A stretch of DNA of 63,178 nt, filler included, from Hausera hauseri (taxonomy: Eukaryota), in the NCBI GenBank assembly GCA_046269625.1. It is 12 parts of 12 records of this genome, joined end to end, with 100 filler letters (N's around TTAATTAATTAA, not from the genome) between each part and the next. Parts side by side here need not be neighbours in the genome. Positions count along the whole stretch, not along the records: positions 5,735 to 10,076 come from JBJURY010626664.1; 11 more parts are not named here. The stretch is one strand, 5' to 3'. The position numbers and the translations under genes were made by a program. Below, piece by piece: positions 2,651-33,021 of the stretch (the first letter of the stretch is position 1; each line of letters starts with the position of its first letter). Below the pieces are notes generated by a model. It worked only from the letters and a program-made list of their open reading frames with translations, was not told the DNA's origin and made no database searches.

Positions 2651-2994
2651 CGGATTAGTCTATATTCGTCCCATAATTTAAATGATTGAGTGTATGAATA
2701 ACTGTCACAATTACCTTGTGTTATTTCGTCGGAACTGGTTGAGCAATAAGATGTCGGAATTGAATACCCCCAACACTGTGTGGCCGTAGGATGATTGTTA
2801 CATGACTTAGGTGACGTAGGATTTGACTTTGATCACAATTGTTTTTCCAATATCGATGGAGTCGGAAGTGACGATGGTGGATTTTTTTGTCGATCATGAA
2901 CGTAGCCACGATATTGCAAAAAATATGTTCTTGGCAAGGGTCAAATCACAAAATATTTTATCTAGATAACTGCCCTTCATAAGACTATTGTCAT

Positions 2995-5634
2995 CATGAA
3001 CGTTTAACTTAAATCTAGCAGCTGCCAATATTTTTTCTTCTACAGAATTGTTTGAAATTAATGGTAACACCCTGATCTCATTTTGTTGGCCGATTCTATG
3101 AACTCTATCCTGTGCTTGTAAGTCAAGATGGAGATTCCAATAAGAATCAAATATAACGACTGTATCAGCAGCTTGCAAGTTAAGTCCTAGTACTTCGGCT
3201 CTTGTAGATAACATAAATATAAAATAATTGTTGCCTGGATTATTAAATTTAGCCAGCAGGTCTCCTCTATCATCAGATTTAGTAGTTCCATCCAATCGCA
3301 AATGTTTAAGACCGATAGTCGAGATAATATCCCATTAATGTCATCAACGACGTCATTTGACAAAATATCAAAACATGATTTGTTGCCTTCAATTTTGGCG
3401 AAATTCTGTCCAGTGATTCAAATTTTCCGGAAGAACGGAAGAGATCAGAACCATAAATTTCTGTGGAAATAGGAATGTCTGAATTAGTTTTGTCCTTGCC
3501 CTGGCTTAAATAACTTTGTTCCGCAATAGCTTGTTCTATATGTTGAAACATAAATGGGTGATTGCAGATTTTCCGCAATTGCATAATCGTATTCATCAAT
3601 GTCCGGGTACCACCTTTACCTTTAGAAATCTTATTTTTCTCTGAGCCATCAGTTAGTGTTACACCTTTACTTTGCATATGACTACAAAGTTCGTTGTAAA
3701 CCTGATATTTCACACTTTATGACGTACTCGACTTTATCGAATAGTTGATTTTTGAGTTCTTTTTTTAACCGCCTCAGTAAAAATGGCCGTAGAACTTTAT
3801 GCAATTTCCGAATTATTAATAATGTTTCCTCCTTTTTCAGTTCTACATCTTTACCACTATTAGCAAAAAGAGCAATAAACCATTGTTCAAATGTTCTAAC
3901 ACTCTGAAACATATCCGGTAGAAGAAAGTTTAGTAAGGCCCACAATTCTGGTGTATTGTTCTGTAATGGTGTTCCGGTCAACAATGACCGGTATGGAGCC
4001 TCGTAATAAGCATTGAGAATTTGAGTCAACTTACAATGAAGATTTTTTATTCTGTGACCTTCATCGATAATCATATATTTACATTTAATCTTTGGCAAAA
4101 TACATTTGTCTATGATAATGTATTTGTACGTCGTCAGCAAAACATTAAATGTTCCACTTTTAAATTGTAGTTGATTCTGAATAGCTTTAAGGGTTGTTTG
4201 CGAGCCTTTGTACAAAATTTTAATGACCGTTGGTGATCATTTGTCGAACTCCAGTGGCCAATTAGAAATCGTTGACAACGGAATAATAATTAAATACGGC
4301 CCGTTGATTTTTTTTCTTTCCATTAAATACGTGATCAAACCAATTGTTTGAATCGTTTTGCCGAGTCCCATTTCGTCGGCAAGAATTCCTTTGATATTGT
4401 TGTTATATAACGACACAAGCCATTCCAAACCACGTATTTGATATTCTTTTAACGTACTGTTAATCATTAGCGATGGTTGTTGTTTGATTTCTTCACGAAC
4501 GGAGTTTGCTAACGTATAATACGTTTGTGTTTAATTTTTATGGTACTCATTATCTTCAATTCCGATATGAATTGATTCCACCTCGTCTTTTTTATCCATA
4601 ACAGTCGCTTCCGTTTCGGAAATTTCCCTAATTGGACTGGATGAGTTTTTGACGTAAATTTCCCAATTTTTGTGTTTTTCAAAAAACTGAAACAAATACA
4701 CAATTGTCGGTCCATCATCGTCGATTAGACTTTCCTTGCTTATCGCGTTATAAACATCGACATGGATGTCATTGGGCAATGTTTGCACGAATACCAAATT
4801 TTTTTCTATTCAGTAAACCTTTTGCAGCTTTATAAATATCATCCGAAAACACCGAACAAGCCTCCGACAAATACTGTGCAAATATTTTAACTGTAGCATT
4901 AAATTTTGATAAATCATCTTCTTTTCTTTTCCGAACAATTTGATCCTTTTTATGACCTTTTACCAACTTTGTTAAACCACTGATAAATTCATCGGTTTGC
5001 GACAACAAATAATGCAAACGCAAATCTTTCTTTTTATCAATCAATTTCCGAGAACCTTCGTCATCTTCAGCCATCAATCAATGCATTCGTTCTAGCTCGA
5101 TTCGTTCTTGTTCTTTTCGTTTGAAATTTTCATTGCTTGCAAAATAATTCAAAATAGATTTGTTGATTTTGGCAATTTTAAAATTAACACTTCGATGGAA
5201 TTATTTGAAGACTTTCAAATAGAAAAGAATCGAACTGAGAAATTCCTGTTGTTCTTGACGTTTTCGTTTTTCCTGTTCATATGGGATGTGTTTTTTGAGT
5301 GTTTTAATAAAATGTGATTCATGTAATGATTGTTTTTTTGTTCGTTTATATGCAGCACAATTCAAACAGTTTTCAACGTTTGTTGGATTTTTAATGCTGA
5401 TTAGAATGTCATTATGCAATTGTTTTTGAAATGACAATAACTTTAGAGCTTTTAATTCGATACTAATTTTGAGATTTTCTTCATTGTTGCTTGTCCAGTC
5501 GGAAAGTTTGTTGAGATAATTACGTAAATAATGAACACATCGTTGACATTCCTGACGGTCAAAAAGAGATTTAGCAAAATTATACGGCAGGAAAAACGAA
5601 GCTAAGGAATTGTAGAGATCACTGTCAAATATGT
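2995..5634 (-). pseudogene. SMARCA4: SWI/SNF ATPase BRG1/Brahma (SMARCA2/4) homologue: HSA, SNF2_N, helicase-C; intronless, multiply frameshifted, truncated after AARFKLNV
   Basis: [32 protein letters not shown]; [36 protein letters not shown]; [10 protein letters not shown]; LLTGTPLQN; [16 protein letters not shown]; [16 protein letters not shown]; [12 protein letters not shown]; [14 protein letters not shown]. Confidence 0.93.
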
Positions 5635-5734: not shown

Positions 5735-6702
5735 TCGACTAAATCCATTTTCGCAGTATGATAAATGTAGTCTATCTTGTTATTCGTATATAAATACCAT
5801 TTTATATTTTCATTTGGTAACTTTCCAGTATTCTTTAGTGTTTCTTTTGTTACAAACAAATCTTCATAAGATGTTGAATATACCGCATTTGATCCACAAG
5901 TGGATACTGCTCTTTTGCGTGTTAACACTATTCCGTCTTTATCATTAGATGACATCAAAACTTTCAGGGAAGGGGTTTGTTTCAGAGTCCGTGGAGTAGG
6001 TAGGCTTACGTTATGATTGTGCTCCGGTTCTTGATATTGGTCTTCATAATACAAATCGCCTTGTATTTCGTACATAGATACTTGTTTCAGAAAGGCTAAT
6101 GGACATATCATAATCGTCTTTTCCCAAACTAATGTGGATTCTCCTAACATACATACGCCATCAGAGTACGTGCAGGATGGTGCAGTCAACATTTTTCCTG
6201 TAATCGCATCAAAGTTTACTTTGTATTCTTTTAGGGTAACAGTATAATCTTCTATTTGCACTACAAAAGATTCCTTTTGACCATTTATCATTACTTTTTC
6301 TCCATCACAACCTCCTCCATATCCAGGCCATATTTTCCCAGCTGTAACTATTCGTGAGTGAACTCGTTTTCCTATATCTGCTTGTACTGGTTGTTTTAGA
6401 CATATGTGAATTAAATCTATAGCTTTCCTGCAATTTTTAGCAGTTATTGTTACAGGTTTAGGTAATCGTTGTGGAATAATCACCGAATTCCACGAATTAT
6501 GACCGCAATTATAAGCGAATATTACTTTATTAACCTGGCATTAATTTAATTGAACTTATTGATAACTAATTGTCTGATAAAGATTGTAATTGTAAGGACC
6601 TTCTTTCTTCACTAATATTGGATTCGCGTTTTGACACTTACCTATGTCCACTAACGAAAGTCTGTCTGTTATTTCTGGTTGGGAACAATCATAAGCTTCT
6701 AA
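5735..6702 (-). CDS. Class III viral fusion glycoprotein ectodomain (chuvirus-G / gB-like env type), partial
   Basis: Signal-like hydrophobic run, then ALEAYDC..LSLVDIGKC..LYQ..CQV..YNCGHNSW..ITAKNCRKA..GGCDG..CTYSDGVCMLGESTLVW..CPL..CGSNAVYSTSYEDLFV..LYTNNKIDYIY; this Cys pattern is typical of the family. Confidence 0.8.
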
Positions 6703-6816
6703 TGCTTTGGCCGTTTTCAAACTGCTTACAGCTATTAAGTATAGTAACAAGTGAATAATTTGTACTACCCAGTCTGAGATGTTGGTATCCTTAGGATATA
6801 TTAGTATGGTTGGATC

Positions 6817-7200
6817 GAATCTTTTGAGAATTTCATCCCAACCACCATGTTTACTTACCCATTCTTTTGTTAACTTATCCGTATGGTGAGCTAGTTCCCT
6901 CACCGTATGGTGCAATTTAGCATCAATCTCTGTTTGGTTTTTGAAACTAACTACTATACATCCTAGTGCCATCAATAATCGATTCTGATTACAGTCTTTT
7001 AATAACAGTGTCAATGATTTATTTAAACCTCCTTTCATTTCGTATTTATGTAATAACCTCGTGATTTGTGACAAAAAGTTTCTAGCAGTTTCTATTATAG
7101 ACTGTAACGGAATTGTTGTAATAGCTGGTATTTGCCTAAGTTGCTTTGGGTTTTCTTTCTTAATTAGTTGCTCCAGAAGTTCATTGGTTGTCAATGTCAC
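6817..7200 (-). CDS. Bcl-2-like domain within the polyprotein
   Basis: BH2 motif TKEWVSKHGGWDEILKRF; divergent BH1 LLKDCNQNRLLMALG at the expected spacing; helical composition; followed by a hydrophobic segment. Confidence 0.7.
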
Positions 7201-7459
7201 TTATGGAATATTTGTATTATTCTGGTTTGATGTACTTGGCATTGGACCTTGTGTTGATTCATTTTTATCATCACTGATGGTGAATCGTTGTAAATTGTCA
7301 TACAATATATCTTCTAGTGTATCCCGTTGTTCCCTGCGTTTTCGTGATAAAGGTCTTTTCTTTCTTTGCCTTTCTGGTCTTTCTTCCTCTTCGGGATTTT
7401 CTTCATCATCGCTTACTGGGTTAAAATCGCATTTCCGCGGTCTTCCCCCTTTTTTCTTA

Positions 7460-7695
7460 CTGCCTATTTCCATATTAATATGATATATTTTTCCAGGAAG
7501 TAGTCCGTAATCCACAACATAATCGTTGTCAACGGCTAATCTGCCATAAACATCAGTTTTCGCTATTATATTGGTTTCGAGATCTAATTCCTCTAGTACT
7601 TTTATTCGAAGATCCGTAAATTTAGTGAACATTTTTGCTGTTACTTCAATTACTTGTTCTCGCTTATTAGTTTTAATTTATATGTTTATAATATA
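7460..7695 (-). CDS. Ubiquitin/SUMO-like domain within the polyprotein
   Basis: YIINI*IKTNKREQVIEVTAKMFTKFTDLRIKVLEELDL...VYGRLAVDNDYVVDYGLLPGKIYHINMEI parallels the beta-grasp pattern (IFVKT...ITLEV...V.AKI...AGKQLEDGRTLSDYNI...LHL). Confidence 0.6.
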
Positions 7696-8430
7696 TGGTT
7701 GCTTTCTTCTATGTTTGCGTCTTAAGTCTCTACGTAGAGTTTTTAATGATTTTTTTTGCGGCTAAAAAATAACACATATCATCCCTTGTCAGTGGCATAA
7801 GTAATTGTGCACACTCTATTCGCTTGATTAATGGTAATGTTTCATATTGTCGTAAAGCGTCCCATACCTCATTGGGTGCTGAATCGATCATTTGTAATTT
7901 GGCTTTAATCATTTCGATTGTTGTTTCCAGAGGATCACCGTATACTATGGAACCTGGTGGGATATTCATTTCTGGGATAAACTATTGATTCTCCATCGGT
8001 AATAATGTAGTTTCGGAATGTTGAAAAGTATCTGCTGTAGGTATAAATTCATAATACACAATTTCAAACATTTCATCTTCCTCTGTTATTATTTAGGTTT
8101 CCTTCTGAGATGTGCTGGGTTGCATAGCATCTCGAATATTTTCAAATAATATTGGTCGCTGTGGTGGAGCCGTTGGTTGAATGAAAGGTGCAACTAATCT
8201 ATCAACATACGGGTCTATCCATTCCCCGGTTGGTCCAATTCTGACATGTTTCTGTGAATATTTATTAGCATATATATCTGGATATCTTTGAGTTATTGGT
8301 TCAATCACCGGAACTGCCCCAGCTTCCCATCTCTCTCTAATTCCCCTATCGCCGGAAAAGATATTTATAACGTCTTTCGGCTTTCTATTATCCATGTTAC
8401 GTTATATTCCACTCGCATTGTTTTAGGTTT

Positions 8431-9648
8431 CTCATCTAAACATCTTTGTGCCATTATTTCCGAATTATGCCCGTTATATAGGTCCAAACATTTGTAGTTC
8501 CTGTATGTCTGTTCCAAATCATAAACAGCAGTTAGATTTTCTGGGTTTATATCCAATGTATTTAACAATACTGGTAACCGACGTACGATTATCATCTTTC
8601 CTGGTAAATATTTATTCATAAATTCGCTTACCGATTCTTGTAATTGTGGGTTGAGCCGTCTGAAATATTCAGTATACTTAGTAGTATCCTGTATAGTTGG
8701 ATATACGTAAATATTAAGGATTGTTTTTCCTTCCAGATTTTTGGCAGTGATCTGAGTAAGTCCTTTTTCGTTCCCTCTGGTTATGCATCTACCGGTAAGA
8801 ATGATTTCTTTGTCTTGCTTCATAGGTTTATCCACAGTTAACACGAGTACTTCCTTAAGCAATTGTATCAAATATATCGGGTGATTATCTAAAGGTTGAA
8901 TTTGGTAATCTCCTTCGTAGGGATAATTAGGAAGTATTTTGGTTTCCTTGGGTACTATCACCGTTTTATTATTAATTTTCAGTCTAGCCTCTCCCTGATT
9001 AGTGATTATAGCACATGGCGGGTCGTTTCTTTTAATCTAAATATCAGTCCTTTTAAGGTAGACTTTACCAATACCTTTCATGCAAACTAATTCTTGTTCT
9101 GCAATATCTACAAATTCTATTCGGTTAGTTTTCTTGTCTACAAACAATTCATCCCTTTTTTGAACAATATCCATATTTATACATTGTAATTTTGCTTCTG
9201 GGATCAAGGTAGTGTTACATGTTATTTCATGTTGAAGATGTCTATCGTTCTTATATAATGGTCTGCTTAGAAAAATAAAATATGGAGATCCTTGGCGGTT
9301 AAGTTTGATTTTGTATTCTTGTCGTAAATCATTTAATTGTTGTGATAATGTACTCTTTCTTTCACATTGATCATCTGGTGAAATAAAATTCTGGTCTACA
9401 CTAAATGTACCAAAGATATCAGTTTCCTTTAGTTGTATTTCCTTAAATAGCCATGGCAATTCTATTCCAACTATAAGTTTTCTACAGAGTAGTTGTCTAA
9501 GGTTTTCGTAGCATTTTTCTTTTTCCATATATACATCTTCTAATTCAATTATCAGATCTCCTTCGATATTCTCTATTCTTATTCGGTTAATTTTCGATTC
9601 CTGTTCTTGTTCGTTAGTTTTATCTATTGCTACAAAGGTTAAAAGTAA
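8431..9648 (-). CDS. Two degenerate DEDDh (ISG20/REX4-like) exonuclease-fold repeats (about 9330-9648 and 8431-8808)
   Basis: The repeats align without gaps: NIEGDLII / NLEGKTIL and LCRKLIVGIELPWLFKEIQLKETDIFGTFSVDQNF / LPGKMIIVRRLPVLLNTLDINPENLTAVYDLEQTY. They resemble REX4 RVSIVN..G..V, LKGRILVGH.L and H.S..DA (here GHNSEIMAQRCL). Confidence 0.5.
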
Positions 9649-10687
9649 ATCTTTAATTTCTTTAGTTTCTGGCCATAACATGTATGAAAGTGCATTTCTT
9701 TGGATATCTGGTACTTTTTGTTCTGCCTGATCCAATTGTTTCCTAGTTATGAAGGGTTTTTCCAGGATAGAATTATTGGTTGGCAGTTCAGGTGTTAGTT
9801 GATGAGATTCTGCTACAGATTTTGCCATTAACAAACCCGTAAAATCTGATTTAGTTTGTTCATTAAAAGTTACTGAACGACGAGGCGAAGTATTTCTTTC
9901 GTCGTTATTACTTTTTCTAATATATGGCATGTTTCCTTTTTCATTCGTAGGATTGTTATAAGGTGGTATTGCCGAATCCGGCTTTCTCTCATTGAAATTC
10001 TTGGAATATTCTGGCGTCGAATTCCTATCGTACCAATATGGAGAAGTATTTCTATTTGATGACGTTTAATTTCGTCNNNNNNNNNNNNNNNNNNNNNNNN
10101 NNNNNNNNNNNNNNNNNNNNTTAATTAATTAANNNNNNNNNNNNNNNNNNNNNNNNNNNNNNNNNNNNNNNNNNNNAGGCTGATCATGATGGTATGGTTT
10201 TTGTTTTATACGATGTAAGATTAACTTATTATACGTCACACATTATGTTAAGTTCAGATTTGTGTCAAAACAAGCTATATTATTACCAGTTTAGAGCGCT
10301 TTCAAGAACACATATCCGTTAACAAGAAACACGGTTTTAAATGTCTAACTTTATTGAAAGTGTTTAATGCCACATTACGTTTTTCACAATAATGTCATTA
10401 TTTTGCAAATACCTTCTATAACTAATATGTTTACACCCACTAAAGGTTACTTAAAATACGTCACATTATCGTTCACCTCAGACAACACAATATATTATTA
10501 TTCTCTGCGATAATGATTGCTTAGTTGATTAAATTGTTGGGAAAGGCAAAGTTATTAAGAAAAACATTGTCGATCATATAATTATTGGTATTATATAGAT
10601 AACAATCACATTATGAAAAGTTGACAACTTGATATTGATTGATTTATTAATAAATAGTAGATCACCTATAATCTGTATCTTTACCAA

Positions 10688-11889: not shown

Positions 11890-14261
11890 TTCGATATCCA
11901 ATGTCGCTTGTCATCAAATGAGTGCAAAGCTTTCTTTTTTTACTGATTGTCATTGGCTGATGGTTCTTGGCTCCAATTCGTTTTTGATCAACAATTGTCC
12001 CACATCCATTTTCGTATTCCTGTTGGTGAACCGTAGGTCTGTCTTTCAGGTTGATGCCCTTACATTTAAGGACGGGTCTGCTTTGGGTTTTAGGGGCATA
12101 CGATTTCGGCCGTCATAAAAATCGCTTCTTGATATTCAACATTACTCTTACTCTCGTCCTTAAATTTTCCTGACACGCGAAACGAGTTGAATAAAGAGAA
12201 TCTGTAGCGTCGTAGTTAGAAGTATCCAACTGTTAATTGCCTATCATTGCTGGTAATAGTTGAGACCGCAGATCAACTCCACAACATTTAAGGAAAAAGC
12301 TGTCAGTGTCACCAGCCACAATATTTAACTCACAATTAAACTGGTGCCGATACTTCTCCAACTCGATGTAATTCAGCTCATACATCCGCAACTTAGAAAG
12401 ATTAAGTACGGCCTGACCGATGTATGAGGGCCTATCTAAGGTGACCATATATTTATCGAGGAGAGCGGCAACTAGATCATCTGCGATTATAATGCTTTCC
12501 GTAAACTGCATCTTACTAGCATACGTAATAAGCTTTTTAGCATTACTACACAATCTTAAGTTGGACATTTTCAACAGATTTTTAACAGTTTTACCATACA
12601 GGCTATTATTCTTCAACTTAAAGAAGTCCTTTTCAAAAGCATTTTGCGCTGCAGCCCTCTTAACAGTATTTAAGTCAATATAATCCTTAAAGACATCCCT
12701 GATCCAACTCAACGGCTCGATGTACCTTTTCAACTACAACACCTAATTCGACGTACAGTGTAAGAGCCGATAATGAATAACAGTTGGACTTATGCTCATG
12801 TGTCAGCAACAATTTCTTAACTCTCGAACCAGGAGGACATTGATTAATTGCAGCTAAAGACAGCTGATCTAATTTATTGTTTGTCAGATGTAATGGATAA
12901 CTCGACTTCAGACGACACCTCGTTTTTCCCTAACAGTGCCAATGAAAGGCAATTGTTCAATCAGTTTATCTAGTTTATTTTCATCATAGATCGAAGTAAA
13001 ATTCGCAAATGGTAAAGGTTGCGATAAAGCCCAGCCGTATAAATTATTTACATCTATATACAAAAATCTGGTGCTTTCATTAGTGGTAACCCTATGCTTA
13101 TTTACAAATGTCATACCACCGCGAATACCTGATTGAAAGAAAGTATACATTTCAGGATTTTGAATGAGTTCAATTTTACAAGGGCTCAATTTCAGTGCTG
13201 TTGCTCAAGACAAACCGGGAATGGATCCGAAATTAGCCGCTTCTAAGCCATCCTGCAATTTTACTACTTTTCTAAATCTTTCAACAATATCACCTAACAA
13301 GTATACATGTAGTTTCATGTATATCATCATATAATTCAAAAGATTGTTACACCTATATTTTAACCAGGTAAGCTACGCCTCTTTCTAATCGCTTTCACTA
13401 ATTCCATCTCATTTTGATGGTAACTGAGAAATAGACTGCAAGTCGTAGAATGATTTGGCTGTAGTATATGGGAAATGCCTTTTCCTTTAATGATGTCAGA
13501 CGAGAAAGCCGTTTCAGTGAACGGATAACTGTCTAAGTTGGCAGCTAAAGTCTTAAGTGAAGCCGGTAAAAACTGCAAGGAGTCTAGAAATCAAATGGAA
13601 ACTGACTTTTTACCTGAACATCGTATCATTGCCTGCATAGTTAGGAATTTCTATGTTGTTTGTGGACTGACTCTTAATTCCCAACTATTAAATTTACTTA
13701 GTGCGTGTTTTAAAATATGAAGATCATACCTACGCAAATTGTGAAAAATAACCGGTAAGTTATACCTAATTTGTCGAACCAAATTACATTTACTGCAAGC
13801 AGGTCGTAAGAAGTTTCCTGTAACATGACAGTGATAACGAACAAATTCTTAACCATTTCCATGGCAAAGATAACATGCTGTGGCATTTTTAAACAAGTAC
13901 CATTCAGTAGATGTTAATGGGATCATAGTTTTTTTGCATTTTCATACCAAGGATAAACGACGGTTTTCACTATTTCCTCTAAACAAGCCAGGAGCTTAAC
14001 TGTGCAATTTTCACCAACAAACTGCCTATATTGAATATCTGAAGGTGACACTAATAAAAGATCGGCTGTAGCAGGCAAATGAATATGCTTAACCTTATCG
14101 TCAGGACACAGAACAGACTCAGTCAGCATATGTAACAAATGGAGGACATATTGATTTTACCCAGTCCTTAAACTCGCAAAAACTTGTTTTCAGGCATTTT
14201 GTACAGAGTAGTGCATTTGGATGCAGATATCCACATTGGTAAATGCTTCAAGTAAGCAATA
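11890..14261 (-). pseudogene. Polinton/Maverick protein-primed family B DNA polymerase with endonuclease VII-like Zn module, decayed
   Basis: CYLCH..CHVTG..ACSKCNL; VIFHNLRRYDLH; SGIRGGMTFVNK; YIDVNNLYGWALSQPLP; FFKLKNNSLYGKT; AGDTDSFF; SFDDKRHWI. Confidence 0.9.
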
Positions 14262-14361: not shown

Positions 14362-17300
14362 TTTTCCGTTGTTTCTAATACCCAAACTCTATCTCCAGGA
14401 TTAATGTCGGTTTTTCCACTTTGCCATTTTTTTGTCCTCCAAGTAATCAATAACTCGTTTCTCCATCTTTTCCAATATTTATCACTTATTTACTGTACGT
14501 ATTGCCATCGTGCGGTTAGGCTGTTCTTCGTTGTACCTGTGAAATTTGAATTGATCTCGGAGTTGTAACCGGTTATAATGAAGTGTTTAGGTGTGAGAAT
14601 AATGTCGTCTTTACTGTCAGCTGACGGAACTGTAAGTGGTCTACTATTTATTATTCATTCAATCTCACATAATATAGTTAATAGTTCTTCATCGGTGACT
14701 CGAGCGTCTCCCAGGATTTTATTTAGTGCTCCTTTAACTGATTTTATTAGCGCCTCATAGGCTCCAACAAAGTGCAGTGCGCTTGGAGGGTTGAATATTT
14801 ATCGTATATGGTTTTGTTCCAGATTCAATTTTGCTGAATAGTTATCTGGTTGTATTTCATAAATCTCCTTGTTTGCTCCAACAAAATTTGTTCCGTTGTC
14901 TGATACAATTATTGATGGTTGTTCCCTTCTTGACATAAACCTTTTGAGGGCTCAGATGAATGAATCTGTATACAAACCTGAGGCTAACTCTAGATGTATT
15001 CCTCTACAAACAAGGCAAGTGAAAAGACAAAAAAACGTTTCTCTTGGACATTTCCTCTCCTTTGTTTGGTATTTATTGGTCCTGCAAAATCCACGCCTAT
15101 CTTATCGAAGGCTTTTAAAGGTAACTGAAGTTTAAACGTTGGTATGGGTGCCATTTTAACGTTCATCCCTCTAGCTCTGTCTCTCTGGCACGTTTTGCAA
15201 TAATTTTGATAGGATTTTACTAGTTTTCTCATTTTTCTGAACCAACATTTTTGAGACAATTCAGCCACCTGATGGTTTATCCCCGCAACATGTTTCAGCT
15301 TCAAATGTGTATCTTCTATTATCTTCTATTGGTGTCGTGATCAATCTACTGTTGGAATGTAAGATGCCTTCAGTATCTAAAATCGGGTCTGCCTTGTATA
15401 TTGGGCTTTTGTTATTTTTAGCCTTTTTTTCTTTAAGTAACTTTATTTCCACTTGGAATTCTCGCTCTTGGTCTGATTTTATAAGTTCTGTTTCGGCCTT
15501 GTTCAGAAGATATGACGGGTCTAACTCTATTGTGCTCAATCCTTCTTGTTGTATTAATTGCTCTACTTTCGAATCAATGCAACTCTGCCATCGAGATTTT
15601 TCATTCGTTACGGTAGTCTCATTCTCTTCATTACTCATTAAAAAACTTCTTAATTTTGGTTCTTAATTGTGACCGTTTTCCGACCATGTAAACAGACTAG
15701 TAGTTTATTTTCTTTTCTCTATATCGGTTTCCTTCAAAAATTCTTGGGGTTGTTCTGGCCAACTAACTTCAACTTCAACTCTGGTTCATGCCACCAACTA
15801 TGATTTTCCTTTATTTCCTGTATAGATTGGCCTCTTGACAATGCATCTGCTGGATTTTCACTTGTTTTCACACATTTCCACTGAACGTTTAAAGAGTGTT
15901 TCTGTATGTAAGCTACACGATTTGCTACGAATGTTTTATAGTGCTTACTGCAATTTTGGATCCAGTGTAATACATTTTTACTGTCAGTCCAAAGTGTAAC
16001 CCTTTCATTCTTCCCTTTCAGAGCTTTTATTAGTCTTTCTTTTAGTTTGACTCCCACACACGCCACTAATAATTCTAGTCTTGGTATCGCTATCGATTCC
16101 CCTGGAGTCACTTTTGCTTTAGCAGCTACTAATGCTGCCATATAGTTCCCGTTCTTTTTCCTCGTTCTGACATAACCCACCGCGCTGTAACCTAATCTTG
16201 AGGCGTCACAAAATATATGCAATTCCCAATTCTCATCTTTATCTAATATTAGGTGTCTTTCAATCTCTATTTCGTTCAACAAGTAGACCTGTTCCATCCA
16301 ACATTGTATTCTTTTCGTATACTCATCTAGTAGTCTTATCCCATCCATAATTTCCAATCCATAACTCCTGTATCATCATCTCTCCAGTTATAGTATAACA
16401 ACTTAAGAATCCCAACGGATCATATATCTTGGCTACCGCACTCAGTGACGTTCTCTTCGTAATTGTGTCTTCAATTATGATCCTTTTATCGAACGAGTAT
16501 TTGTCTTTCGCTACTTCCCACTTCATACCCAATGTCTTTGTGACAATCGTGGTTTTCTCCAATATATTGTATTCCTTCGATCTCTTCACATGTGGGATTT
16601 TAGCGACAAGGAGTTCTGAGTTGGTTGCCCATTTATATGGAACCATTTCCGCTCTATTTCATATCGTATTCAGTCCGTGATATAATTCTACTACTGCTTC
16701 TTCTGTAGGCACTGCATCTATGCAGTCATCCATATATGTTGAACACGTTATGGTTTCAACTGCTCTCTGATATGTCTATTTAAATCCTTCAGCGTTCAAT
16801 CTTGACACCAACTGCGCTAATAAAGGGGAACTGTTCAATCGAATACTAATCTATTGAATTCGTACGTAATTTCTTTATCATTTTTCTTCCATAAAAAAGT
16901 AAATATTTTTTGTCCGCTGAATCCACTGGTATTTGGAGGAACATATCGTGTATGTCGCAGATTAAAACTTACTTGTTGCGACGCATCCGGAGTAAAATAT
17001 CAACTACGTTAAGTTTTAATTTCGAACCGATTTTCAAGAAGTCATTTAAACATTTTCCTTTGTTCTTCGTTGCTGCGTCAAATACTATTCGACATTTTGT
17101 GGTGTCACGATCAAACTTAACTACAGGAAAATGTGGTAATAACCATCTTGTCTCTCTTTCCTCTTTTTCCGATATTTCTCTTATGTATGATTTTTCTTCG
17201 TACTTTTTAATGACTTTATTCTATTCCTCTATCACCCTAATTTCTTTATCCAATATCTTTATTAATAAATTTAATCTTCTCTTTGCCGTCCATGATGAGG

Positions 17301-19000
17301 CAAACCCACTGACATCTGGATGTTTCTCTTCCTTCCATGGTGACCTAACACAAAACCTTTCTTTTTCATATCTTATTCTGCTCGTCACTCTTTTTAATAA
17401 TTCAGCCTCTAAGCTATTTAACTCAGGCCTTTCCTGAAACTCCTGTTCTGTTTCCCATAGTCTGTTTCAATCTTCTTGTATTTCATCAGTTCTAGTCCAG
17501 AATGTTCTAACGAAATTGGTCCTTACTTTTTTCTTTTCATCCCCGATTATTTCAAACCACATCCATCCAAGTGGAGTTAATCTGGCCACCGGTTCGTTTG
17601 TCTTTCCTGCTATCTCTTTTATAGACCTATGTAGATGCATGTAGTTCGCACCTATTATTCCATTAACTGACTTCGGTGATTTTCGAGCAGCGAACTTTAT
17701 ATTTCTCAAATGTGGTCATTTGTTCTTCTCGATCTCTCAATTCACGGCCATCATTTTCCCAGTTGGATCATGGAGAACCAACGCTTCAAATGGGATGTTA
17801 ACCTTCCTGTTCTTACTTCGTAAGATCATTTTACCCGTTCCATTTTCGACCTTGTTGTCGCCCCACCTACTACCATAACAGATACACTTTCCTGACTACC
17901 AACTAATTTTAGCTGTTCTACAATAGAGCGTTTTACAAAACATTCTGTGCTCGCATCGTCCAATAACATGCATACCTTTACTTTTCGCTCTCCGTTTTCC
18001 AACCACACGTCTACAGTTCGCAAAGCTATTTTATTTCTTGTCGTTGTCTCTTCTGATCGTTGAATTACGTACGTGTTAACTCGTGCCCCAATATCGCCTC
18101 CTACGTCTCCCTCCTTGTTTATTCTTCCTTCTGTATGGAGTGTATAGAACGTTTTTTCTTGTTTTTTAAAATTATCCTTTTTTAACTCCAATTCATGAGT
18201 AAAGTGACATTTTTCTCCGTACCTACAATTTCCATTCAGATGGTATTTACATATTCGTGTTTCATTTTTCTTTTCTTTATTATGCAAGAATTTACAGTTA
18301 TTACCGAATTTACAAGTCCCATCTTTCTCAAATTCCCAACAAAGTCTTTTCTCGATCTTATCCGTTGTTTTAATGCTGTTACCTTTCTTTGTCTTGCATT
18401 GAATTTGGGTCTCGTTTTGATTAGATTGTCTATCTATGTAAAAGATCTTCCGTGCTTTTTTATTGTCTCCTGTTTCCGAATGATACGTTATTCTTGTCTA
18501 TAGAGGGGAAATAATTTTCAACTCTCGAACTATCGGTAGTTGCCGTTTGATCAAATTTACGTTCATGTACAAATCCTAACGGTGATCTATTCTTGAATGT
18601 ATTGAAAACGTTGATGCCTCTGATTCTTTCAATAGTGTTCCTTTGTATACTTGCTTCTGACTCCACCCAAGTTTTCATTTCTTCAACTGTCCAATTTAGC
18701 CTCTTTTCGGTGGCATATTTCTCCCATAACAATACTATAACCTCTGAGAGCTCCTCTGCAAGGCTTTGATACAATAGCCCTCCACAAAGCTCCTCTGTTC
18801 TCCCTAGATTCCTCAATCTTACAATTATTCCTTCTAACAATGCCACAAATTCGTATAGCCTTCTTATGTCTTTCTCGTCAATTGCCCGGAACCTCATGAC
18901 TTCAGTCATGAATGCCGTATAAGACCGCTGTTCACCACCGTAGTAAGAGTCCAGTTTTTCCATGGATGCCCTATACCCTTTAAATGTTCTATACATAATT
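14362..19000 (-). mobile_element. Decayed BEL/Pao LTR retrotransposon (gag, protease, RT, RNase H, integrase), truncated
   Basis: DUF1759-like Gag (KLDSYYGG..LYEFVALLE); protease LLDDASTECFV..PVARLTPLGW; RT WLLPHFPVVK..TTKCRIVFDAA..YMDDCID; KTLGMKW..KIYDPLGFL; RNase H LHIFCDAS..IPRLEL..WTDS..NPADALSRG; integrase GVDFAGP..IVSDNGTNFVGA..APHFVG. Confidence 0.93.
18195..18341 (-). other. Tandem CCCH zinc fingers in BEL Gag
   Basis: CWEFEKDGTCKFGNNCKFLH (C-x8-C-x5-C-x3-H) and CKYHLNGNCRYGEKCHFTH (C-x7-C-x5-C-x3-H), in frame with the protease. Confidence 0.88.
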
Positions 19001-19481
19001 GGTATAACAAATTACACATGTTTTTCTTAAAAGAACAACCAGCTTTCGTTCGACATGTTTTATTTGAGATCAGCATAAAATTTTATACATACTTTTCTTT
19101 AAAAAAAATGACTACATTATGTCCGATATGATCCCCCGGCGCGTTTTTCACCATCTTTTCCCTAGGCCCATGTGAATTTCCTTTCCGGACGTNNNNNNNN
19201 NNNNNNNNNNNNNNNNNNNNNNNNNNNNNNNNNNNNTTAATTAATTAANNNNNNNNNNNNNNNNNNNNNNNNNNNNNNNNNNNNNNNNNNNNTACTTATT
19301 ATACACCACTTTTTTCATGTGTTTATAATACACTTTATAATACTTTACTGCATGCAAAAATAAATACACTTTATAATACTTTACTTCATACAAAAACAAA
19401 TACACTAAATACGAAAAATAAGTACACAATACGAAAATACTAACTACTAAAAAATTTATTTCAAATAAAACTATATATAAT

Positions 19482-20926: not shown

Positions 20927-23043
20927 ATATTGTCCCCTGGTATGAAAGTGTCAAAAAGCCAATGATACTGTTAACATCAGCTGAATGGTTTCAGTTTAAA
21001 AACGCCACGTCATGTTACCTTTGCCACGAACATGGCACTACATTTGTTCGAGATCACTGCCATGTTAAAGGTAAATACTTAGGCCCAGCTTGTAATAAGT
21101 GTAACTTGGCTCGTAAGATAAGGTATAATTTGCCTGTTATTTTTCATAATTTGCGTGGATATGATCTTTATCATATTTTAAAACACGCACTAAGTAAATT
21201 TGCTACTTGGAATTTTATTGTTATTCCTCAAACAACAGAGAAAATTTTAACAGTGCAGGCAAATATACAGCGTTCATACAAAAAGTCGGTATCTATTCGA
21301 TTTCTCGACTGGTTGCAGTTTTTACCGGCTTCACTTAAGACTTTGACTTCCAACTTAGACAGTTACCCATTTAGTGAGTCGGCTTTTCTTTCGGATATTA
21401 TTAGGGGGAAAGGTATTTTTCCATATACTGCAACCAAATGTTTCAGTGACTTGCAGTGTATTAAGGAGTTGCCACCAAAATGGAATGATGTTAGTGATAC
21501 GGATTATGCGGCAGCACAACTGGTTTGGTCTAAATACAGTGGTAGCTGTCTTTTAGATTATATGTTGGTATATAGGAAGCTCGACGTATATTTGTTAGGC
21601 GATATTTTTGAGCCGTTTAGAAAAGAAGTTAAGTTGCAGGATGGATTAAACGCTACTATCTTTGTCTCAATTCCAGGATTAAGTTGGGCAACAGCACTGA
21701 AATCAAGTCCTTTTAAGATTGAGCTCATTCAAACTGATATGTATCAGTTCTTTCAATCGGGTATTCGTGGAGGTATGACTTTTGTAAATAAGCATAGGAT
21801 TGTCTCCGATGAAAGCACCACTCTAGTGTATATAGACGTAAATAATTTATACACCTGGGCTTTTTCACAACCATTGCCTTTTGCGAATTTAAGTTGGATT
21901 TATGATGAGGACATAATAAATCAATTTATTGAACAATTACAATACATTGACTGTGTCACAGAAAAACGGGGTTTAGTATTTGAAGTTGATTTGAACATTC
22001 TGGCTGACAAACATGATAAGTTGGACCAACTGCCTTTAGCCACAATCAACCAATGTCCTCCTGGTTCTAAAGTTAAGAAATTGTTGCTGACACATGAGCG
22101 TAAATCAAACTACGTTTACTATCGGCTCTTACAGCTGTAAATGGCGTTAGGCGCTGTAGTTGAGAAGGTACATCGGGCCGTTGAGTTTTATCAGGGATGT
22201 CTTTAATCATGATATCGATCTAAATATTGCTAAAATGGCTGCAGCAAATATTCCTTTTGAGAAGCACTTTTTAAGCTTAAAAACAACAGCTTAAACGGCA
22301 AAATAGTCGAAAATTTGCTTAATAGGTCAAACCTGAGAATGTGTAATAATGCTAAAAAGCTAGTTACATATGCTGGTAATGCCCAGTTTAAAGAGAGCAT
22401 TGTAATAGCCGGCGATGTGGTTGCCGTTCTTCTAGATAAAGACATGGATACATTAGATAGGCCCTCATACATCGGTCAGCCCGTACTTCATATATGCAAG
22501 TTACGGATGTATGAGCTGAATTATATCGACTTGGAGACATATGCACCAGTTTAATTGCGAGTTAAATATTGTTGCTGGTGACACAGACCGTTTCTTCATA
22601 GAATGTCGTGGTGTGGACTTAAAATCACAACTGTTACCGGCAATGATAGCAAATGAGCAGTTAGATACGTCAAACTATGACAAAAGGGATCCACTGTACT
22701 CGACTCGTTTCGCAGCTGTAATTGGCAAATTTAAAGATGACAGCAATGGCTGCGTTCAGTATTAGGATGCGATTTTCCTACGGCCGCAGTCATACGCCCT
22801 TGAAAATCAAACCAAACCGGTCCTTAAATGCAAAAGCATCAACCTGAAGCAGACAGACCTATAGTTTGACAGCTACCGACAGGCTTATGAATCCGGTTGC
22901 AGCACCATGGTAGACTGGGAGCGAATTGGCAGTAAAAACTATCAGCTGATAACAATCAGTTTAAAAAAGAAAGCGCTGGACCCGTTTGACGACAAACGCT
23001 ACTGGATTGATGAAAACCGGAATATTGCATACGGAGATTATTA
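20927..23043 (+). pseudogene. Second Polinton-type pPolB copy, 5'-truncated, same family as 11890-14261
   Basis: CYLCHEH..RDHCHVKG..GPACNKCNL; FHNLRGYD; SGIRGG; YIDVNNLY; FKLKNNSLNGK; AGDTD; IGKFKDD; PFDDKR. Confidence 0.92.
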
Positions 23044-23382: not shown

Positions 23383-26300
23383 TTGCTGTGGATATTTATA
23401 ACAAATTTAACAATGCTGTCTGAATGTAGTTCTCACGAAACCATTCTACAGTTTTAACAAATGTGATTCTGGCTTGATCATCCTGACTTCTTAGAAGACC
23501 CACACGATTAGTATTTTCTTTTACAAATGTGACTAGACGGATTGGAATAAGGTCTGGATTATTTTCAACGGCATCTTTTATGACAGTTAATTATTGAGAT
23601 ACCATGAGATTGCAGAGACTGACTCTTGATGCATCGTCAACGTATTCCATTTCAGATGTAAAGTCCACCAAATCGTGAAATTCTTCTTCAATACAGTAAA
23701 CGATGTAATTCATAAGAGACCATTTATCATCTGGCCTTCGACACTGGTAACATGTCGAGACTCTGTATTCGAAAATCACAGGCTTTACCACGCCTGGAAT
23801 CGTTCAATCTATTGCCAAATGCTAAAACAATTTCAAGAATTTTTTTTAAGCTTATGACTATCCATAATATTACGACACGCAAGCGTAACAATACTGATTT
23901 TCTCTTGAAGACCAAAGTAGGTTTCATCGAAGGCATCCATATATAAAATTGCTTTTAATTTCATTTCAACACGGTCCATACATAACAACAAGGCTACCAA
24001 ACGATCTTCTTCGGACAATACATTCAAATTATCCCCGGTAAAATCATGATACATATCAATTCCCTGATAACTGGGTAGTTGATATAACAATCGATCTGCA
24101 GCTTCCGAAGGCATATCAGAATTCGTTATTGAATAAGACAAAGGTCTACCCCAATCTCCAAACGTATTCGAATCCGAGTAAAGTAACTTTTCTTGCTTCA
24201 AAAATGATACCACAACCCTCAAATATTTTTGTCTGTTGGAATCTAAAAATGATATTTTGTCTGATTGGTCTGATTCTGGAACAACCTTCAATTCTGATGG
24301 TTTTCGTTTTATATTAGACAATTTAGCTTTTACACTAAACGTATCAATTGGAGGTATATCGTACTCATGTTCGACGGATGGAACTTTAAATATTTTTTCA
24401 AAACCATCAAGATCTAATTGGTTTTCAACATGACTTCCGTCGAGTTCTTCAAATACTGTGCCTTGTTGGTTCCGAAGAATATTCCATTTAATAAGTGGAG
24501 CATCTCCAGTAACACTAATACTTGACATTTCCATCAAATTCGATAAATTCCCATCTTTTTCATTCAGAACTGAGTCCAGTTCATCGGTAACCAATTTTTC
24601 AGCTTTGAGTATTGAAAACTCATCTATTTTAGAGACTAGATGATTGTCAGTAATTGACATAAATGAATTTCCATTCATTTGAAAAGGTGGAGGAGGAAGA
24701 CTGCTAAAGGGTAACGACGCACTGTCTATTGTATCCAGCGCATTATTTGACTGATCATTTACAATCATCGTTTCTCTTATTGGCAGTGGCGGATGAAGAA
24801 CATCAACATCACCGGACAACAATCGATGTCCTTGTGGGTGAATTTGGTTATATACACCGGTGTTTTGAGCAGCATTCGGAACAGTCAACTTCTTCAATTG
24901 ATCTTGAAGTTCATCAATCTGTCGTTTCATATCTGATTCGCGATCAGATAAATTGACGTTGATGTCACGGATTTTGGAGCGTAGAGATTCAACCAACAAC
25001 GAAAGTTCTTCTTCTCGGTGTTTTGCTTTCTCTAATTCCTTTTTAGCTTTTCTGACACGATCATCGGATTCCTTCATTTTTCGGGCTTTTTCACCATCAG
25101 CAAGGGTAAGGGCTTCTTGTAAACTACTAACGTCTTTCTCAAGACGTTCACATTCAGCAACGTATGCCTCTTTAGCTTCAGCATCTTCCAGCAGGACGCT
25201 ACAATCAACCATATTATCTATATATGCGTCGACCTGCCGATTCAATCTATCTCCGGGCCGTTCTTGTAATTTTTTTTAAAATCATCAAGCCCCAATAAAC
25301 TAAATTCAAACTGTGAATAAACCCGTAAATTTATGTTTTCCACCGAATGAACAATGATATTTATAAACTGCATATTGGAAACCGCATAATCGATATTGTA
25401 ATCATCAAGAGGAAGTGTTTCATGATGTCGATAATAGAACATTAGCGTTTCGAATCTCCTTTCTTCTCCAGTCATAGCTTTAAATAAATCAAATGCTTTT
25501 AAAACTCGTTCGTGACCACCTTCTATAAGGCAAACAGCAGATAGTAAGTCAAGAACGAGACTTTTTGTTTGATAACTTGGATGGAGAAGGCACATCGTTA
25601 CCACATTGATTGTGTCTTTATGTTCAAAGGCTAATCGGCAGCCTCTCTGATTGTTTAAGAGAGTTCTGAAACATTTCAGACTTAGATGAAGGCATTCCTT
25701 AATGGAATCAGCCATCGTTGTGTGAGATTTTGCAGATTTAGAAACCGAGCTTGCATTTCTACACAATCCTGAACTTCTGGACTTTGAAGAGTTCAACCGT
25801 GTGCTACTCCGAGACGAGCCGTCAAATATTCGCCTTAATGACTGATTCGCAGCACTGAGATAATCGTTTTCTGATCCGTTTTCTAAAACGGATCCAATGG
25901 TTGTTGGATAATTAGATATGCTGCTACTGCCGCCGAATACCGTCGGAGAGATTTGTATATCTTCTGTTTTTATCAAATGCAACAAAGTTTGAGACATGTA
26001 ATCGACCAAAGTTTCCAAGCCATTATGTTTCAGAAAATCATAGACCCATTCAACATTATTCGTACGTAACGAAATCTCTGTTGCTGATAAAATCTGTTTA
26101 GCACTCTGAAATTCATCCTTTCTCTTTGAATTTGTTATTTTATACGACTTCAGACCTTTGATCAAAGTGACATAATGAAATGCGGAACATTTCGGATTTT
26201 TTTGACTCGAAATTCAACAAAAGTTCAATTTTCTGTGGAGCTTCTAACTGTTCAATGTTTTGGATATTTTGCGGAGTAACGTCCAATGACTGAATAAATA

Positions 26301-28312: not shown

Positions 28313-28510
28313 ATGAAAATATTCAATAAAAATGGATAATCCGAAACTACTGATTTTAAATTCAAACAAAACCGAATTTCAAAACAAGCTATTCCCAAAT
28401 AATTTTCGTTTATTAATGATTGGGAGTTCAGGTTGTGGTAAAAATGTGTTGTAAATGCAAATTTTAACAGAACCAGATTTCTAAGGTTATGATAATTTAC
28501 TTTTCTTATC
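28313..28510 (+). pseudogene. Polinton packaging ATPase (A32/FtsK-like), N-terminal fragment
   Basis: LFPNNFRLLMIGSSGCGKNVL..ILTEPDF*GYDNL (Walker A). Confidence 0.65.
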
Positions 28511-29320
28511 TACAACAATAAATCGCCAAATAATTGTCGTCAAACAGTGCATCTTTGTAAAACGTAGTTGAACCTTTGGGTGTGGTGTAAAAGACGAGTT
28601 CTGTGCGCTGTATCATGTAACAGGCAATTTGTATTTCCAAGCCCAATCGATGTCCCATGAGCACAGATGGTTCTACCTTTACTCGACGTACATATAATTG
28701 TGCCTCAATAATTTTCAGTATGGGTTTGAGATTTGCAGCTGCGGTTTTCAAACAAAAGACAATGTCGCTGCGTTTGAGCTGAATAATGGCTTTAACACCG
28801 AGCAGTAGGTATTTTGGCTGATCGAAAAAGTCAAAGTAAAGCGGTCCACACATTGTAAGTGCTTTTGATTCTGCCACACCTGCCTGACGTTTTGCCGCTG
28901 TGGTGTCATATCCGATGGTTTTCGTCAAATGAGTCATTTTCGTGTCAGTACTGTAATTCAGAGCCGTTTTAATGAGTGCTTTGATAGTGTAAAGACTGGT
29001 GTTGCCTTTGATTTTGACGTTTTTAGAGTCAGTGAAGCTTCCTGGAACAGTGTGAGGAAAAGGTAATTGGCCGGTGTGGCAGTGTCTGTTGCAGCAAAAA
29101 CAGTTTGCGAATCCTTTTTAACAATGAATTTTACATAGAGTAGCGTATTGTTTAAATCCAGATATTCATTGTCCGATGTCATAATGTTAAATTGAATGTC
29201 AATGTTATCATCCGTTGAAACAGAATCAACGCGGTAAATTTCTTCAAATGCCGCATTGTCAATAACAACTTGTGGTGCGCCTTTGTCAAATATACACAGT
29301 TCAGATTTTTCAGATGCCAT
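28506..29320 (-). pseudogene. Polinton/adintovirus major capsid protein (double jelly-roll), 3'-truncated
   Basis: KSELCIF..PQVVI..IQFNI..EYLDLNNTLLYVK..NYLFLTLF; GPLYFDFFDQPKYLL.GV..IQLKRS..FCL; EAQLYVRRVKV.PSV. Confidence 0.85.
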
Positions 29321-29329
29321 TTGTCTGTC

Positions 29330-29690
29330 AATCAATCGAAAATCGTACGACGACGACGTTTGATTATAGTTAATGAGCTCGATGATCTGTACGGCCTTTT
29401 CTTAAGCCACCGCCAGCCAATTGTTTTTTTGACAGATTTAACGACTCCCGGTGCGACACTTTTTATTTCGGTCAAGGCGTGTTACATCAGCGATGGTAAA
29501 ATCGATTTTTTTAATATAGTACGTCCAGTGCTGTTTTTGCTGCCAGGGCTCCAATACGCTTCAACACTGGAAATGCTAAACGTGCCAATGTACTCAACCA
29601 CCCAGAGCCACACTGTTTACCAACGAAATATGGCAGTTTACCGCCTTGCTGGGGTTTACTGTAAATGGAAACGATTTCGGCATCAATCAT
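29330..29690 (-). pseudogene. Small Polinton virion core/membrane-active protein (not in ORF track)
   Basis: MIDAEIVSIYSKPQQGGKLPYFVGKQCGSGWLSTLARLAFPVLKRIGALAAKTALDVL: QxGxG then an amphipathic helix; basic tail KRRRRTIFD. Confidence 0.65.
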
Positions 29691-30790
29691 GTTGTTGTTG
29701 TTGGATTCGACGGAAATGAAGAATTAGACTGGTTGTAGTACCAAACTTAAATTCAATAAGGTAGCCCGCGTCACATTGAACATTCACTTCAACATTTTTA
29801 TAGATGTAGATGCCAAGTGTAGGTACATTGGATTATCGAGCTTGACAGCGACATTTTCGCCAGTAGTATACTTGCTGCTTTCCGGATAAATTGCACGGTG
29901 TAGCGGTATACGTACTCCACCGACCAAAATCGGTTTAGTGACGTTCACGTAAATGTACACATGATTTAGTCCAGTTGTTAGTTTGGGTTTAAGTGTTGAA
30001 ACATGTACCGTCTTTGTATTGGATGCTCAAACCGATGTTTTTCAAAACCCAATACCATAGCCAAAACTTTGTCCAATGAAATGTCAACAATATTCTTAGC
30101 CAGTTCAAATTTAATGTACCCATTTATATCTGACTCGAAAACTTTAAATATCTCATTATACTTTGGATTTAAAGAAGAAGAAAAGTGTTGACATAGATGT
30201 GCCACAGATTCACAATAGACATGGTCTTCAATCGATATATGGCGTTGATACCCTTTTTGCTGTATAGGTAAATTTCACCGTTGTCTGTTAATATGCGAGA
30301 CTTAATCTTGGACCAACTATATATTTACTTTCAATATGTTTACCTTTGTACTCGGTATTTTTGAATCCAAATTACTGCGCCATCTCGGAGGACTCAAAGG
30401 TAACAGGTAATTCAAAATCTGTCATAAAATGTAAGTTTCCCGGTAAAATGAAAACATCCATCTTGCTGCGTGAATCGTAATTTGCTTCGGTCGTGCAAAT
30501 GGCCGATTCTACAACTATCATTGTATTGTCAGTAAGCGTCAGAGGACACGAATGTGTTTTGGTTTTAGTAACAGTCTTGTTGTACGTTATTTTTATATTA
30601 TTTATCAATGTCACTGGTACGTAGGGAAAGTTAAATTCCGTCAGTGCAACCTCCCATTGTCCAGAAAAATCCAAAAATTTGCTCCAATCTACAATCTATT
30701 TACTGACTGAATTGCTCGAATTAGTTGTCGGACAACTATTGCTCGGCAACACCATGTAAATACTCGTGATCTCGATTATGATGATGATAG
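29683..30790 (-). pseudogene. Polinton minor capsid (penton) protein, copy 2
   Basis: IYMVLPSNS..DFSGQWEVALTEFNFP..VYIYVNVTKPILVGG..PMYL..LILHFRR. Confidence 0.75.
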
Positions 30791-30806
30791 TGATGACGCA
30801 GTTTGT

Positions 30807-32899: not shown

Positions 32900-33021
32900 T
32901 TTTACTAGAATTACAATAATTAGAACGAAACGTAAATGAAAGATTCGGTAAACTGCGACAGAAAGATGAAAACCATGCAACAATATCTCCGAATCATCAT
33001 ATACTTACTGTCAATTTTTAT

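Follow-up and report, generated by a model that had tools for sequence, protein, structure and literature searches.

Burro/GYPSM1 are giant gypsy-like LTR retrotransposons of planarians in which Gag and env are encoded in one frame (PMC6431247). According to that paper, the env is related to fusion proteins of mononegaviruses and is immediately preceded by a Ubi/SUMO-like domain followed by a BCL2-like domain, and an Smc-like coiled coil is present. GAG-ENV-POL errantiviruses with an ENV of the HSV/gB type have been described from Platyhelminthes, Bryozoa and Nematoda (PMC13524379). DEDD-family domains have been captured by LTR retrotransposons of bdelloid rotifers, Juno and Vesta, which encode a DEDDy ORF3 with intact catalytic residues (PMC5408684). 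DEDD folds without the acidic residues are found in Exuperantia, PML PXL and Maelstrom, host proteins with shown nucleic-acid binding (PMC5785220, PMC13659232, PMC7968707), and the arenavirus nucleoprotein is a viral structural protein with a DEDDh domain that is used against innate sensing (PMC7968707).

The locus described here, from Hausera hauseri, is a retroelement polyprotein copy with two degenerate exonuclease-like domains, called here ExoA and ExoB, between its capsid and envelope parts. It resembles Burro in its probable Gag-ubiquitin-like-Bcl-2-like-Env layout and in the SMC-like coiled coil of one relative, and this overall layout has already been published (PMC6431247); the two dead exonuclease-like domains are what we did not find described. 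The Burro cargo listed in PMC6431247 (AIR1, MATH, BIR, ankyrin, midasin-like, dUTPase) includes no exonuclease. Burro Gag carries CCHC knuckles, whereas P0002, one of the two relatives presented below, is without them and has an Arg/Ser-rich tract instead; Burro runs in frame into Pol, whereas the other relative, P0001, ends after the Env anchor (PMC6431247). We file the element, which would work as an enveloped retroelement of the Burro type, as Burro-like with DEDDh-derived pseudonucleases; two Burro features, the zinc knuckles and the in-frame Pol, are absent from it, and its two domains are without the catalytic residues of DEDDh enzymes.

The gB-type env placed after gag is shared with the GAG-ENV-POL errantiviruses, and the P0001 ectodomain follows by eye, cysteines included, the six Schmidtea rows, which were the only rows compared (PMC13524379). 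This sequence resemblance of Env is consistent with a flatworm host. The main text of the errantivirus paper contains none of the terms 'Bcl', 'ubiquitin', 'AlkB', 'exonuclease' and word-initial 'nuclease', and its figures and deposited sequences may hold such domains (PMC13524379). The captured domain of Juno and Vesta is of the DEDDy/RNase D type, single, intact and in a separate ORF3, whereas those studied here appear to be of the DEDDh/REX4 type and are doubled, dead and inside a Gag-Env polyprotein (PMC5408684). The preliminary description of this DNA had referred to the extra DEDD exonuclease ORFs of invertebrate LTR elements. This comparison holds for two degenerate domains, at least one of which is of the ISG20/REX4 type; it does not hold for a separate ORF or for three copies. 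Among these cellular pseudonucleases, Exu and PXL have a SAM-like subdomain (PMC5785220, PMC13659232), none being evident here; nucleic-acid binding was shown for both and for Maelstrom, whereas that of ExoA and ExoB is proposed by analogy (PMC5785220, PMC13659232, PMC7968707). The arenavirus nucleoprotein domain keeps its catalytic residues and is an exonuclease, whereas ExoA and ExoB are without these residues (PMC7968707). The literature searched, a body of work mostly exclusive of subscription papers and Repbase reports, yielded no description of paired dead exonucleases in an element of this kind.

A decayed polyprotein copy and its two relatives

The window, i.e. the whole stretch of 63,178 nucleotides that was analysed, consists of short contigs separated by linkers, each an N run that includes a TTAATTAATTAA spacer, and the contig at 5735-10076 is flanked by such linkers on both sides. 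This contig has about 34% GC and all of its coding signal is on the minus strand (Table 1). Nine in-frame stops (10068, 9039, 8367, 8095, 7984, 7680, 7203, 6558 and 6543) and two frame changes (near 8330 and near 7750) indicate that the window copy is dead. The interval 8431-9648 has one stop, the TAG at 9039. The motifs FVAIDKT (from 9636) and HNSEIMA (from 8469) are located as first described, on the minus strand and in one frame, with this single TAG between the two domains.

Table 1. Features of the polyprotein copy (positions in the window)
Feature	Position	Strand	Basis and remarks
Decayed copy of a single retroelement polyprotein	5735..10076	-	Whole contig; both contig ends cut the polyprotein
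End of Arg/Ser/Asp-rich tract and linker before ExoA	9661..10074	-	50% identity to P0001 235-340
ExoA, degenerate exonuclease-like domain	9276..9660	-	hhalign to ExoB E=5.7e-6; 50-63% identity among three sequences
Conserved domain of about 140 aa, strand-rich C-terminal half	8850..9261	-	56-61% identity; holds TAG 9039; strands in both models
ExoB, REX4/ISG20-like DEDDh domain	8406..8811	-	Atlas and hhalign to REX4-like proteins; 63-74% identity among three sequences
Variable linker, then small helical domain (about 7742-7945)	7742..8335	-	Identity to P0001 of 33% in the linker and 47% in the helical domain
Ubiquitin-like domain (probable)	7464..7701	-	78% identity to P0001; low-confidence model
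Bcl-2-like domain (probable)	6813..7200	-	74% identity to P0001; weak matches
Hydrophobic signal/anchor and N-terminal half of gB-type (class III) envelope glycoprotein	5737..6785	-	PF24664

Relatives were sought with the ORF at 8368-9036 as query, and 578 candidates yielded two relatives, both ENA records: P0001 (1963 aa) and P0002 (1339 aa). Residues 235-1686 of P0001 aligned over positions 10074-5737 in three pieces with 56%, 37% and 68% identity. P0001 is an unbroken single ORF that extends from an Arg/Ser/Asp-rich tract through ExoA and ExoB to a gB-type envelope protein. P0002, which stops inside ExoB, reaches further upstream than this tract, where it has a coiled coil and a weak match to Retrotrans_gag. 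The order deduced from both is Gag, Arg/Ser-rich tract, ExoA, unassigned domain, ExoB, helical domain, ubiquitin-like domain, Bcl-2-like domain and gB-type envelope. Since P0001 is a single ORF and P0002 has the Gag match upstream, ExoA and ExoB are cargo in a Gag-to-Env polyprotein and do not form an ORF of their own. A word search of 5.8 billion proteins and a HMMER search of 1.84 billion proteins returned no relatives beyond P0001 and P0002; the word search of the 5.8 billion proteins with the Env part returned P0001 as its one match, and scans of viral and metagenome contigs revealed no related loci. The family profiles are thin, with three members only (the window copy, P0001 and P0002).

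The assignment to an element class rests on Gag, Env and the layout, because Pol and LTRs were not seen and the contig ends inside env. The gB-type env is in frame behind the Gag-region tract, as P0001 joins the tract that it shares with P0002 to PF24664 (Monjiviricetes_fusion; E=5e-12 in the window and 1.9e-63 in P0001). Hydrophobic segments of P0001 lie at 1336-1359 and 1904-1935; the protein ends about 30 residues past the Env anchor and an in-frame Pol is absent, P0001 being known as a protein, so that a downstream pol ORF is possible. Regarding the other end of the polyprotein, the window contig ends before Gag. The Retrotrans_gag match of P0002 (E=7.6e-4) reaches 20.1 bits, under the cut-off of 24.1, and is followed by the Arg/Ser/Asp-rich tract; the coiled coil of P0002 matches SMC models (E=2.5e-5). 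The tract (about 520-900 in P0002, 9740-10074 in the window) is 61% identical between P0001 and P0002, has a net charge of +20 and +25, respectively, and is without Cys or His. CCHC zinc knuckles are absent, the stretch of P0002 that separates ExoA from the Gag match being free of Cys, and it is possible that the tract is a nucleocapsid substitute.

The domain between ExoA and ExoB gave no usable Atlas match. A dead AlkB-type oxygenase, suggested by eye from its strand pattern, gained no support: no signal was obtained, in local or global comparison, against 22 bacterial AlkB-family domains or a subset of 9 of these, and no AlkB-type fold was among the matches listed in the fold searches; we leave the domain unassigned. 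Downstream of ExoB, the helical domain is the best-predicted part of the first model (pLDDT 51-60), and its model matches generic helical repeats only, with Z up to 8.0. A strongly basic stretch follows this domain, before the ubiquitin-like domain. The ubiquitin-like domain had no Pfam match and no relevant match in a PDB sequence search, and its model resembles beta-grasp folds (kindlin N-terminal domain, UBX, archaeal ubiquitin) with Z 4.1-4.5. The matches of the Bcl-2-like domain are weak (NCBIfam bcl-2, E=0.007; PDB A1, E=0.17-0.22; Pfam Bcl-2, E=0.23). Each of these two assignments is weak alone; they are concordant and follow the Burro order, and we consider both probable.

Other contigs of the window hold further mobile and host-type sequences. 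Intron-free, broken pieces of a SNF2/Brahma-type helicase (PF00176, PF00271) lie at 2894-4236 on the minus strand, adjoined by a WD40 fragment and gypsy-like fragments (56-1613); the helicase pieces look like captured host sequence. A gene for a protein-primed family B DNA polymerase (PF03175), bearing an insert of the Endonuclease VII type and typical of Polinton-like elements, occurs in two copies that lie on different contigs (12177-13720 and 21171-22713) and are 75-85% similar. A BEL/Pao element (PF05380, DUF1759) whose Gag region has two CCCH zinc fingers occupies 15734-19011 on the minus strand. On the same strand, 23833-26213 holds a formin gene with the domains Drf_GBD, FH3 and FH2, in which no introns are visible and which a frame change near 25250 divides in two. 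Within 28506-33004, also on the minus strand, an integrase-like fragment is found near 32537, and the ORFs at 28506-29401 had no Pfam match; the latter may resemble Polinton/adintovirus capsid genes.

Similarity of ExoA and ExoB to each other and to DEDDh exonucleases

The window segments of ExoA and ExoB matched each other with E=0.007 in BLASTP, and the three-sequence profiles aligned over 100 columns with a score of 38.7 and E=5.7e-6 in hhalign, whereas 100 column shuffles of this comparison gave 12.4±2.6, with a maximum of 19.6. The internal similarity claimed in the preliminary description is thus real, its score being above those of all 100 shuffles, and ExoA and ExoB are, on the evidence of their sequences, related to each other. 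The identical spacing that had been claimed for them was not found, as ExoA is about 17 residues shorter in the hhalign alignment (gaps of 6 and 11), at the loop after strand 3. The two domains are not adjacent, about 140 residues of conserved domain lying between them. A third, weaker copy had been suspected at 7750-8060, and this candidate was discarded: the region showed no similarity to ExoA (E=0.48), ExoB (E=0.32) or REX4-like proteins (E=0.38) and is modelled as all-helical.

To place the two domains among known families, we compared them with six REX4-like proteins from viral contigs, two of which are near-identical. The six viral contigs (L153-L158, 7-466 kb) code for REX4/ISG20-like exonucleases with intact catalytic motifs. 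The three of these proteins that were checked match PF00929, and their profile finds ISG20L2 with E=4e-41 and ISG20 with E=3e-35. Against the six-sequence profile, ExoB scored 31 in hhalign, with E=2.2e-4 and a probability of only 45%; 60 shuffles gave 13.0±2.9 with a maximum of 24.4, and the reversed sequence gave 10. The first Atlas match for ExoB was Arena_ncap_C (0.92), followed by RNase_T/REX4 clusters (0.90), and its ten best family matches all belong to one family or clan, with shared-feature counts of 149-157, under the 170 typical for same-family matches. The parallel drawn earlier with the arenavirus nucleoprotein agrees with this result, the exonuclease domain of that protein being the first match.

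The direct comparison of ExoA with the REX4-like profile was weak (E=0.017-0.024). Its score was 19.3 with the six-sequence profile, one of 60 shuffles being higher, at 24.1, and 20.2 with a three-sequence REX4-like profile, for which the maximum of 40 shuffles was 15.8. In a sliding scan of P0001 345-1315 against the REX4-like profile (22 windows), the peak was at ExoB (31) and a lower bump at ExoA (19-20), whereas the 15 windows without much overlap of either domain scored 9.5-15.2. ExoA is tied to the REX4/ISG20 family mainly via ExoB (E=5.7e-6).

No match to PF00929 (RNase_T) was obtained for ExoA or ExoB at E up to 10, or in P0001 or P0002 at E up to 1; neither domain had a Pfam, NCBIfam or PDB sequence match, and profile comparison with 27 bacterial DEDDh domains gave no signal. 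Two AlphaFold2 models have a mean pLDDT of 32-33, too poor to confirm a fold; at this pLDDT, the RNase H-like core order b1-b2-b3-aA-b4-aB-b5-aC fits both. Foldseek with the poor first model placed human ISG20 at the top of 350,542 chains, with an E of 0.06 that is not significant; ISG20L2 had rank 9, ERI2 rank 15 and SDN1 rank 18, likewise without significance. In the second model, ExoA had Z 3.1-3.4 to DnaQ-like domains and ExoB had no exonuclease rows, all within noise, and Foldseek against viral models returned only long, meaningless alignments. In the fold search and RNase_T comparison that had been proposed earlier, ISG20 took first place on a poor model and PF00929 was not matched. The DEDDh resemblance itself stands moderately for ExoB, on the Atlas and profile matches, and weakly for ExoA by direct comparison, where one shuffle scored above it. 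In our judgement, a DEDDh origin is probable for ExoB and, a little less so, for ExoA.

Loss of the catalytic residues and apparent constraint on the domains

As reference positions we used ISG20 D11, D94 and D154 (PMC7756014), E13 and H149 being read off the ISG20 alignment. In ExoB, the first three acidic positions are Arg, Ile and Leu in all three sequences, and the fourth is Met in both sequences that reach Exo III, the window copy and P0001; P0002 stops before it. The Exo III His is kept in these two sequences, which read GHNSEIMA versus GHSSVEDA in ISG20. Exo III of ExoB was aligned by eye, hhalign having left this motif unaligned. ExoA has kept the first acidic position, which is Asp in the window and Glu in P0001 and P0002, and the next catalytic positions are Thr/Ile and Leu in the three sequences; no recognisable Exo III was present in ExoA and its His was not found. 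On the substrate side, ExoB has retained the loop that surrounds the Tyr of the DYRT motif of REX4, and this loop is shortened in ExoA.

The loss of acidic residues noticed at the outset was confirmed and is common to the unbroken P0001, the intact copy in which the metal-binding residues are likewise missing. Because P0001 shares the residues, catalytic loss predates the decay of the window copy. Plain decay of the window copy as the cause of this loss is ruled out by the presence of the same residues in unbroken P0001 and in P0002. Between the window copy and P0001, identity is 50% in ExoA, 59% in the middle domain and 63% in ExoB versus 33% in the linker; it is 47% in the helical, 78% in the ubiquitin-like and 74% in the Bcl-2-like domain and 67% in Env. 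The identities of 50-74% in ExoA, the middle domain and ExoB, compared to 33% in the linker, therefore point to constraint on the dead domains. The net charge is -3 to -7 for ExoA and 0 to +6 for ExoB, and it ranges from -3 to +6 in the six REX4-like proteins with intact motifs.

Possible roles of the two domains

The reading that we tentatively prefer, at a little short of an even chance, is that ExoA and ExoB, probably derived from ISG20/REX4 and without metal-binding residues, are likely a non-cutting RNA-binding module in the retroelement polyprotein. In an ancestor, the capture of a REX4-type exonuclease would have been followed by its duplication and by the loss of catalysis. ExoB would hold RNA 3' ends, be they those of the transcript of the element or of intermediates of its replication, without cutting them, and this grip would shield them from host nucleases and RNA sensors. 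ExoA, its substrate-side loop lost, would be the structural partner of ExoB, and through its ubiquitin-like and Bcl-2-like domains the polyprotein would in addition gain control over protein turnover and cell death. RNA binding is proposed because of the analogy to Exuperantia, PXL and Maelstrom, because ExoB has kept the loop and the His, and because of the place directly behind the basic tract. ExoB is no more basic than the REX4-like proteins and charge adds no support for RNA binding, which is less likely for ExoA than for ExoB because ExoA is net acidic and without the substrate-side loop. The preliminary description had suggested RNA-binding decoys or suppressors of small-RNA defence. 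That the duplicated dead host RNA exonuclease would be the element's suppressor of small-RNA (piRNA) or RNA-sensing defence, in one polyprotein with ubiquitin-like and anti-death modules, seems unlikely.

Dead exonuclease folds could also act via proteins, mimicking a host REX4/ISG20-type nuclease or docking partners, as adaptors beside the ubiquitin-like and Bcl-2-like cargo. ISG20 is reported to retain some antiviral activity without catalysis (PMC7756014), the neighbouring cargo is of the protein-interaction type, and ExoA shows the acidity and loop loss mentioned above; however, no partner is known, and the loop around the DYRT Tyr and the His retained by ExoB speak against such a role, which we regard as rather unlikely. 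The absence of the catalytic residues and the further erosion of ExoA would suit folded spacers without a function of their own, kept so that the polyprotein folds and is processed to deliver Env, and the DEDDy ORF3s of rotifers are reported to be without clear benefit (PMC5408684). Yet ExoB is as conserved as Env (63-74% versus 67%), whereas a true linker is down to 33%, which makes spacers distinctly unlikely.

Two further readings concern the fold and the chemistry. In the first model, ExoB (residues 306-414) aligns to the connection domain of HIV-1 RT with Z 4.1-4.7, and neither a curated family match nor a signal against bacterial DEDDh domains was obtained, as might be seen if the domains were RNase H-like and not DEDD-derived (for instance retroelement-derived degenerate RNase H or tether domains) or had an unrelated alpha/beta fold. 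This is quite improbable, as Z values below 8 are at noise level for a model this poor, the order of the motifs and their residues follow REX4/ISG20, and the Atlas matches are DEDDh families. The invariant C663, D696, E702, D752 and E754 of ExoB, together with the kept His, would be compatible with a nuclease that is still active via a reconstructed active site, for which a case has been made in some Maelstrom domains. None of these residues, however, is at a canonical metal-binding position, D752 corresponding to the Asp with a structural role in the 'DT' strand of REX4, and we consider an active ExoB very improbable.

It is an open question by which means transposons counter host RNA defence, and few counter-measures are known to be encoded by the elements themselves. 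If ExoA and ExoB were mere spacers, the present result would be an annotation note only. Were the suppressor reading true, this transposon would encode a cassette for immune evasion comparable to the cassettes of true viruses. The conserved dead nuclease pair in a Gag-Env polyprotein provides a concrete domain to test for RNA binding, and it may extend the list of Burro-type cargo from apoptosis and ubiquitin modules to RNA-processing folds.
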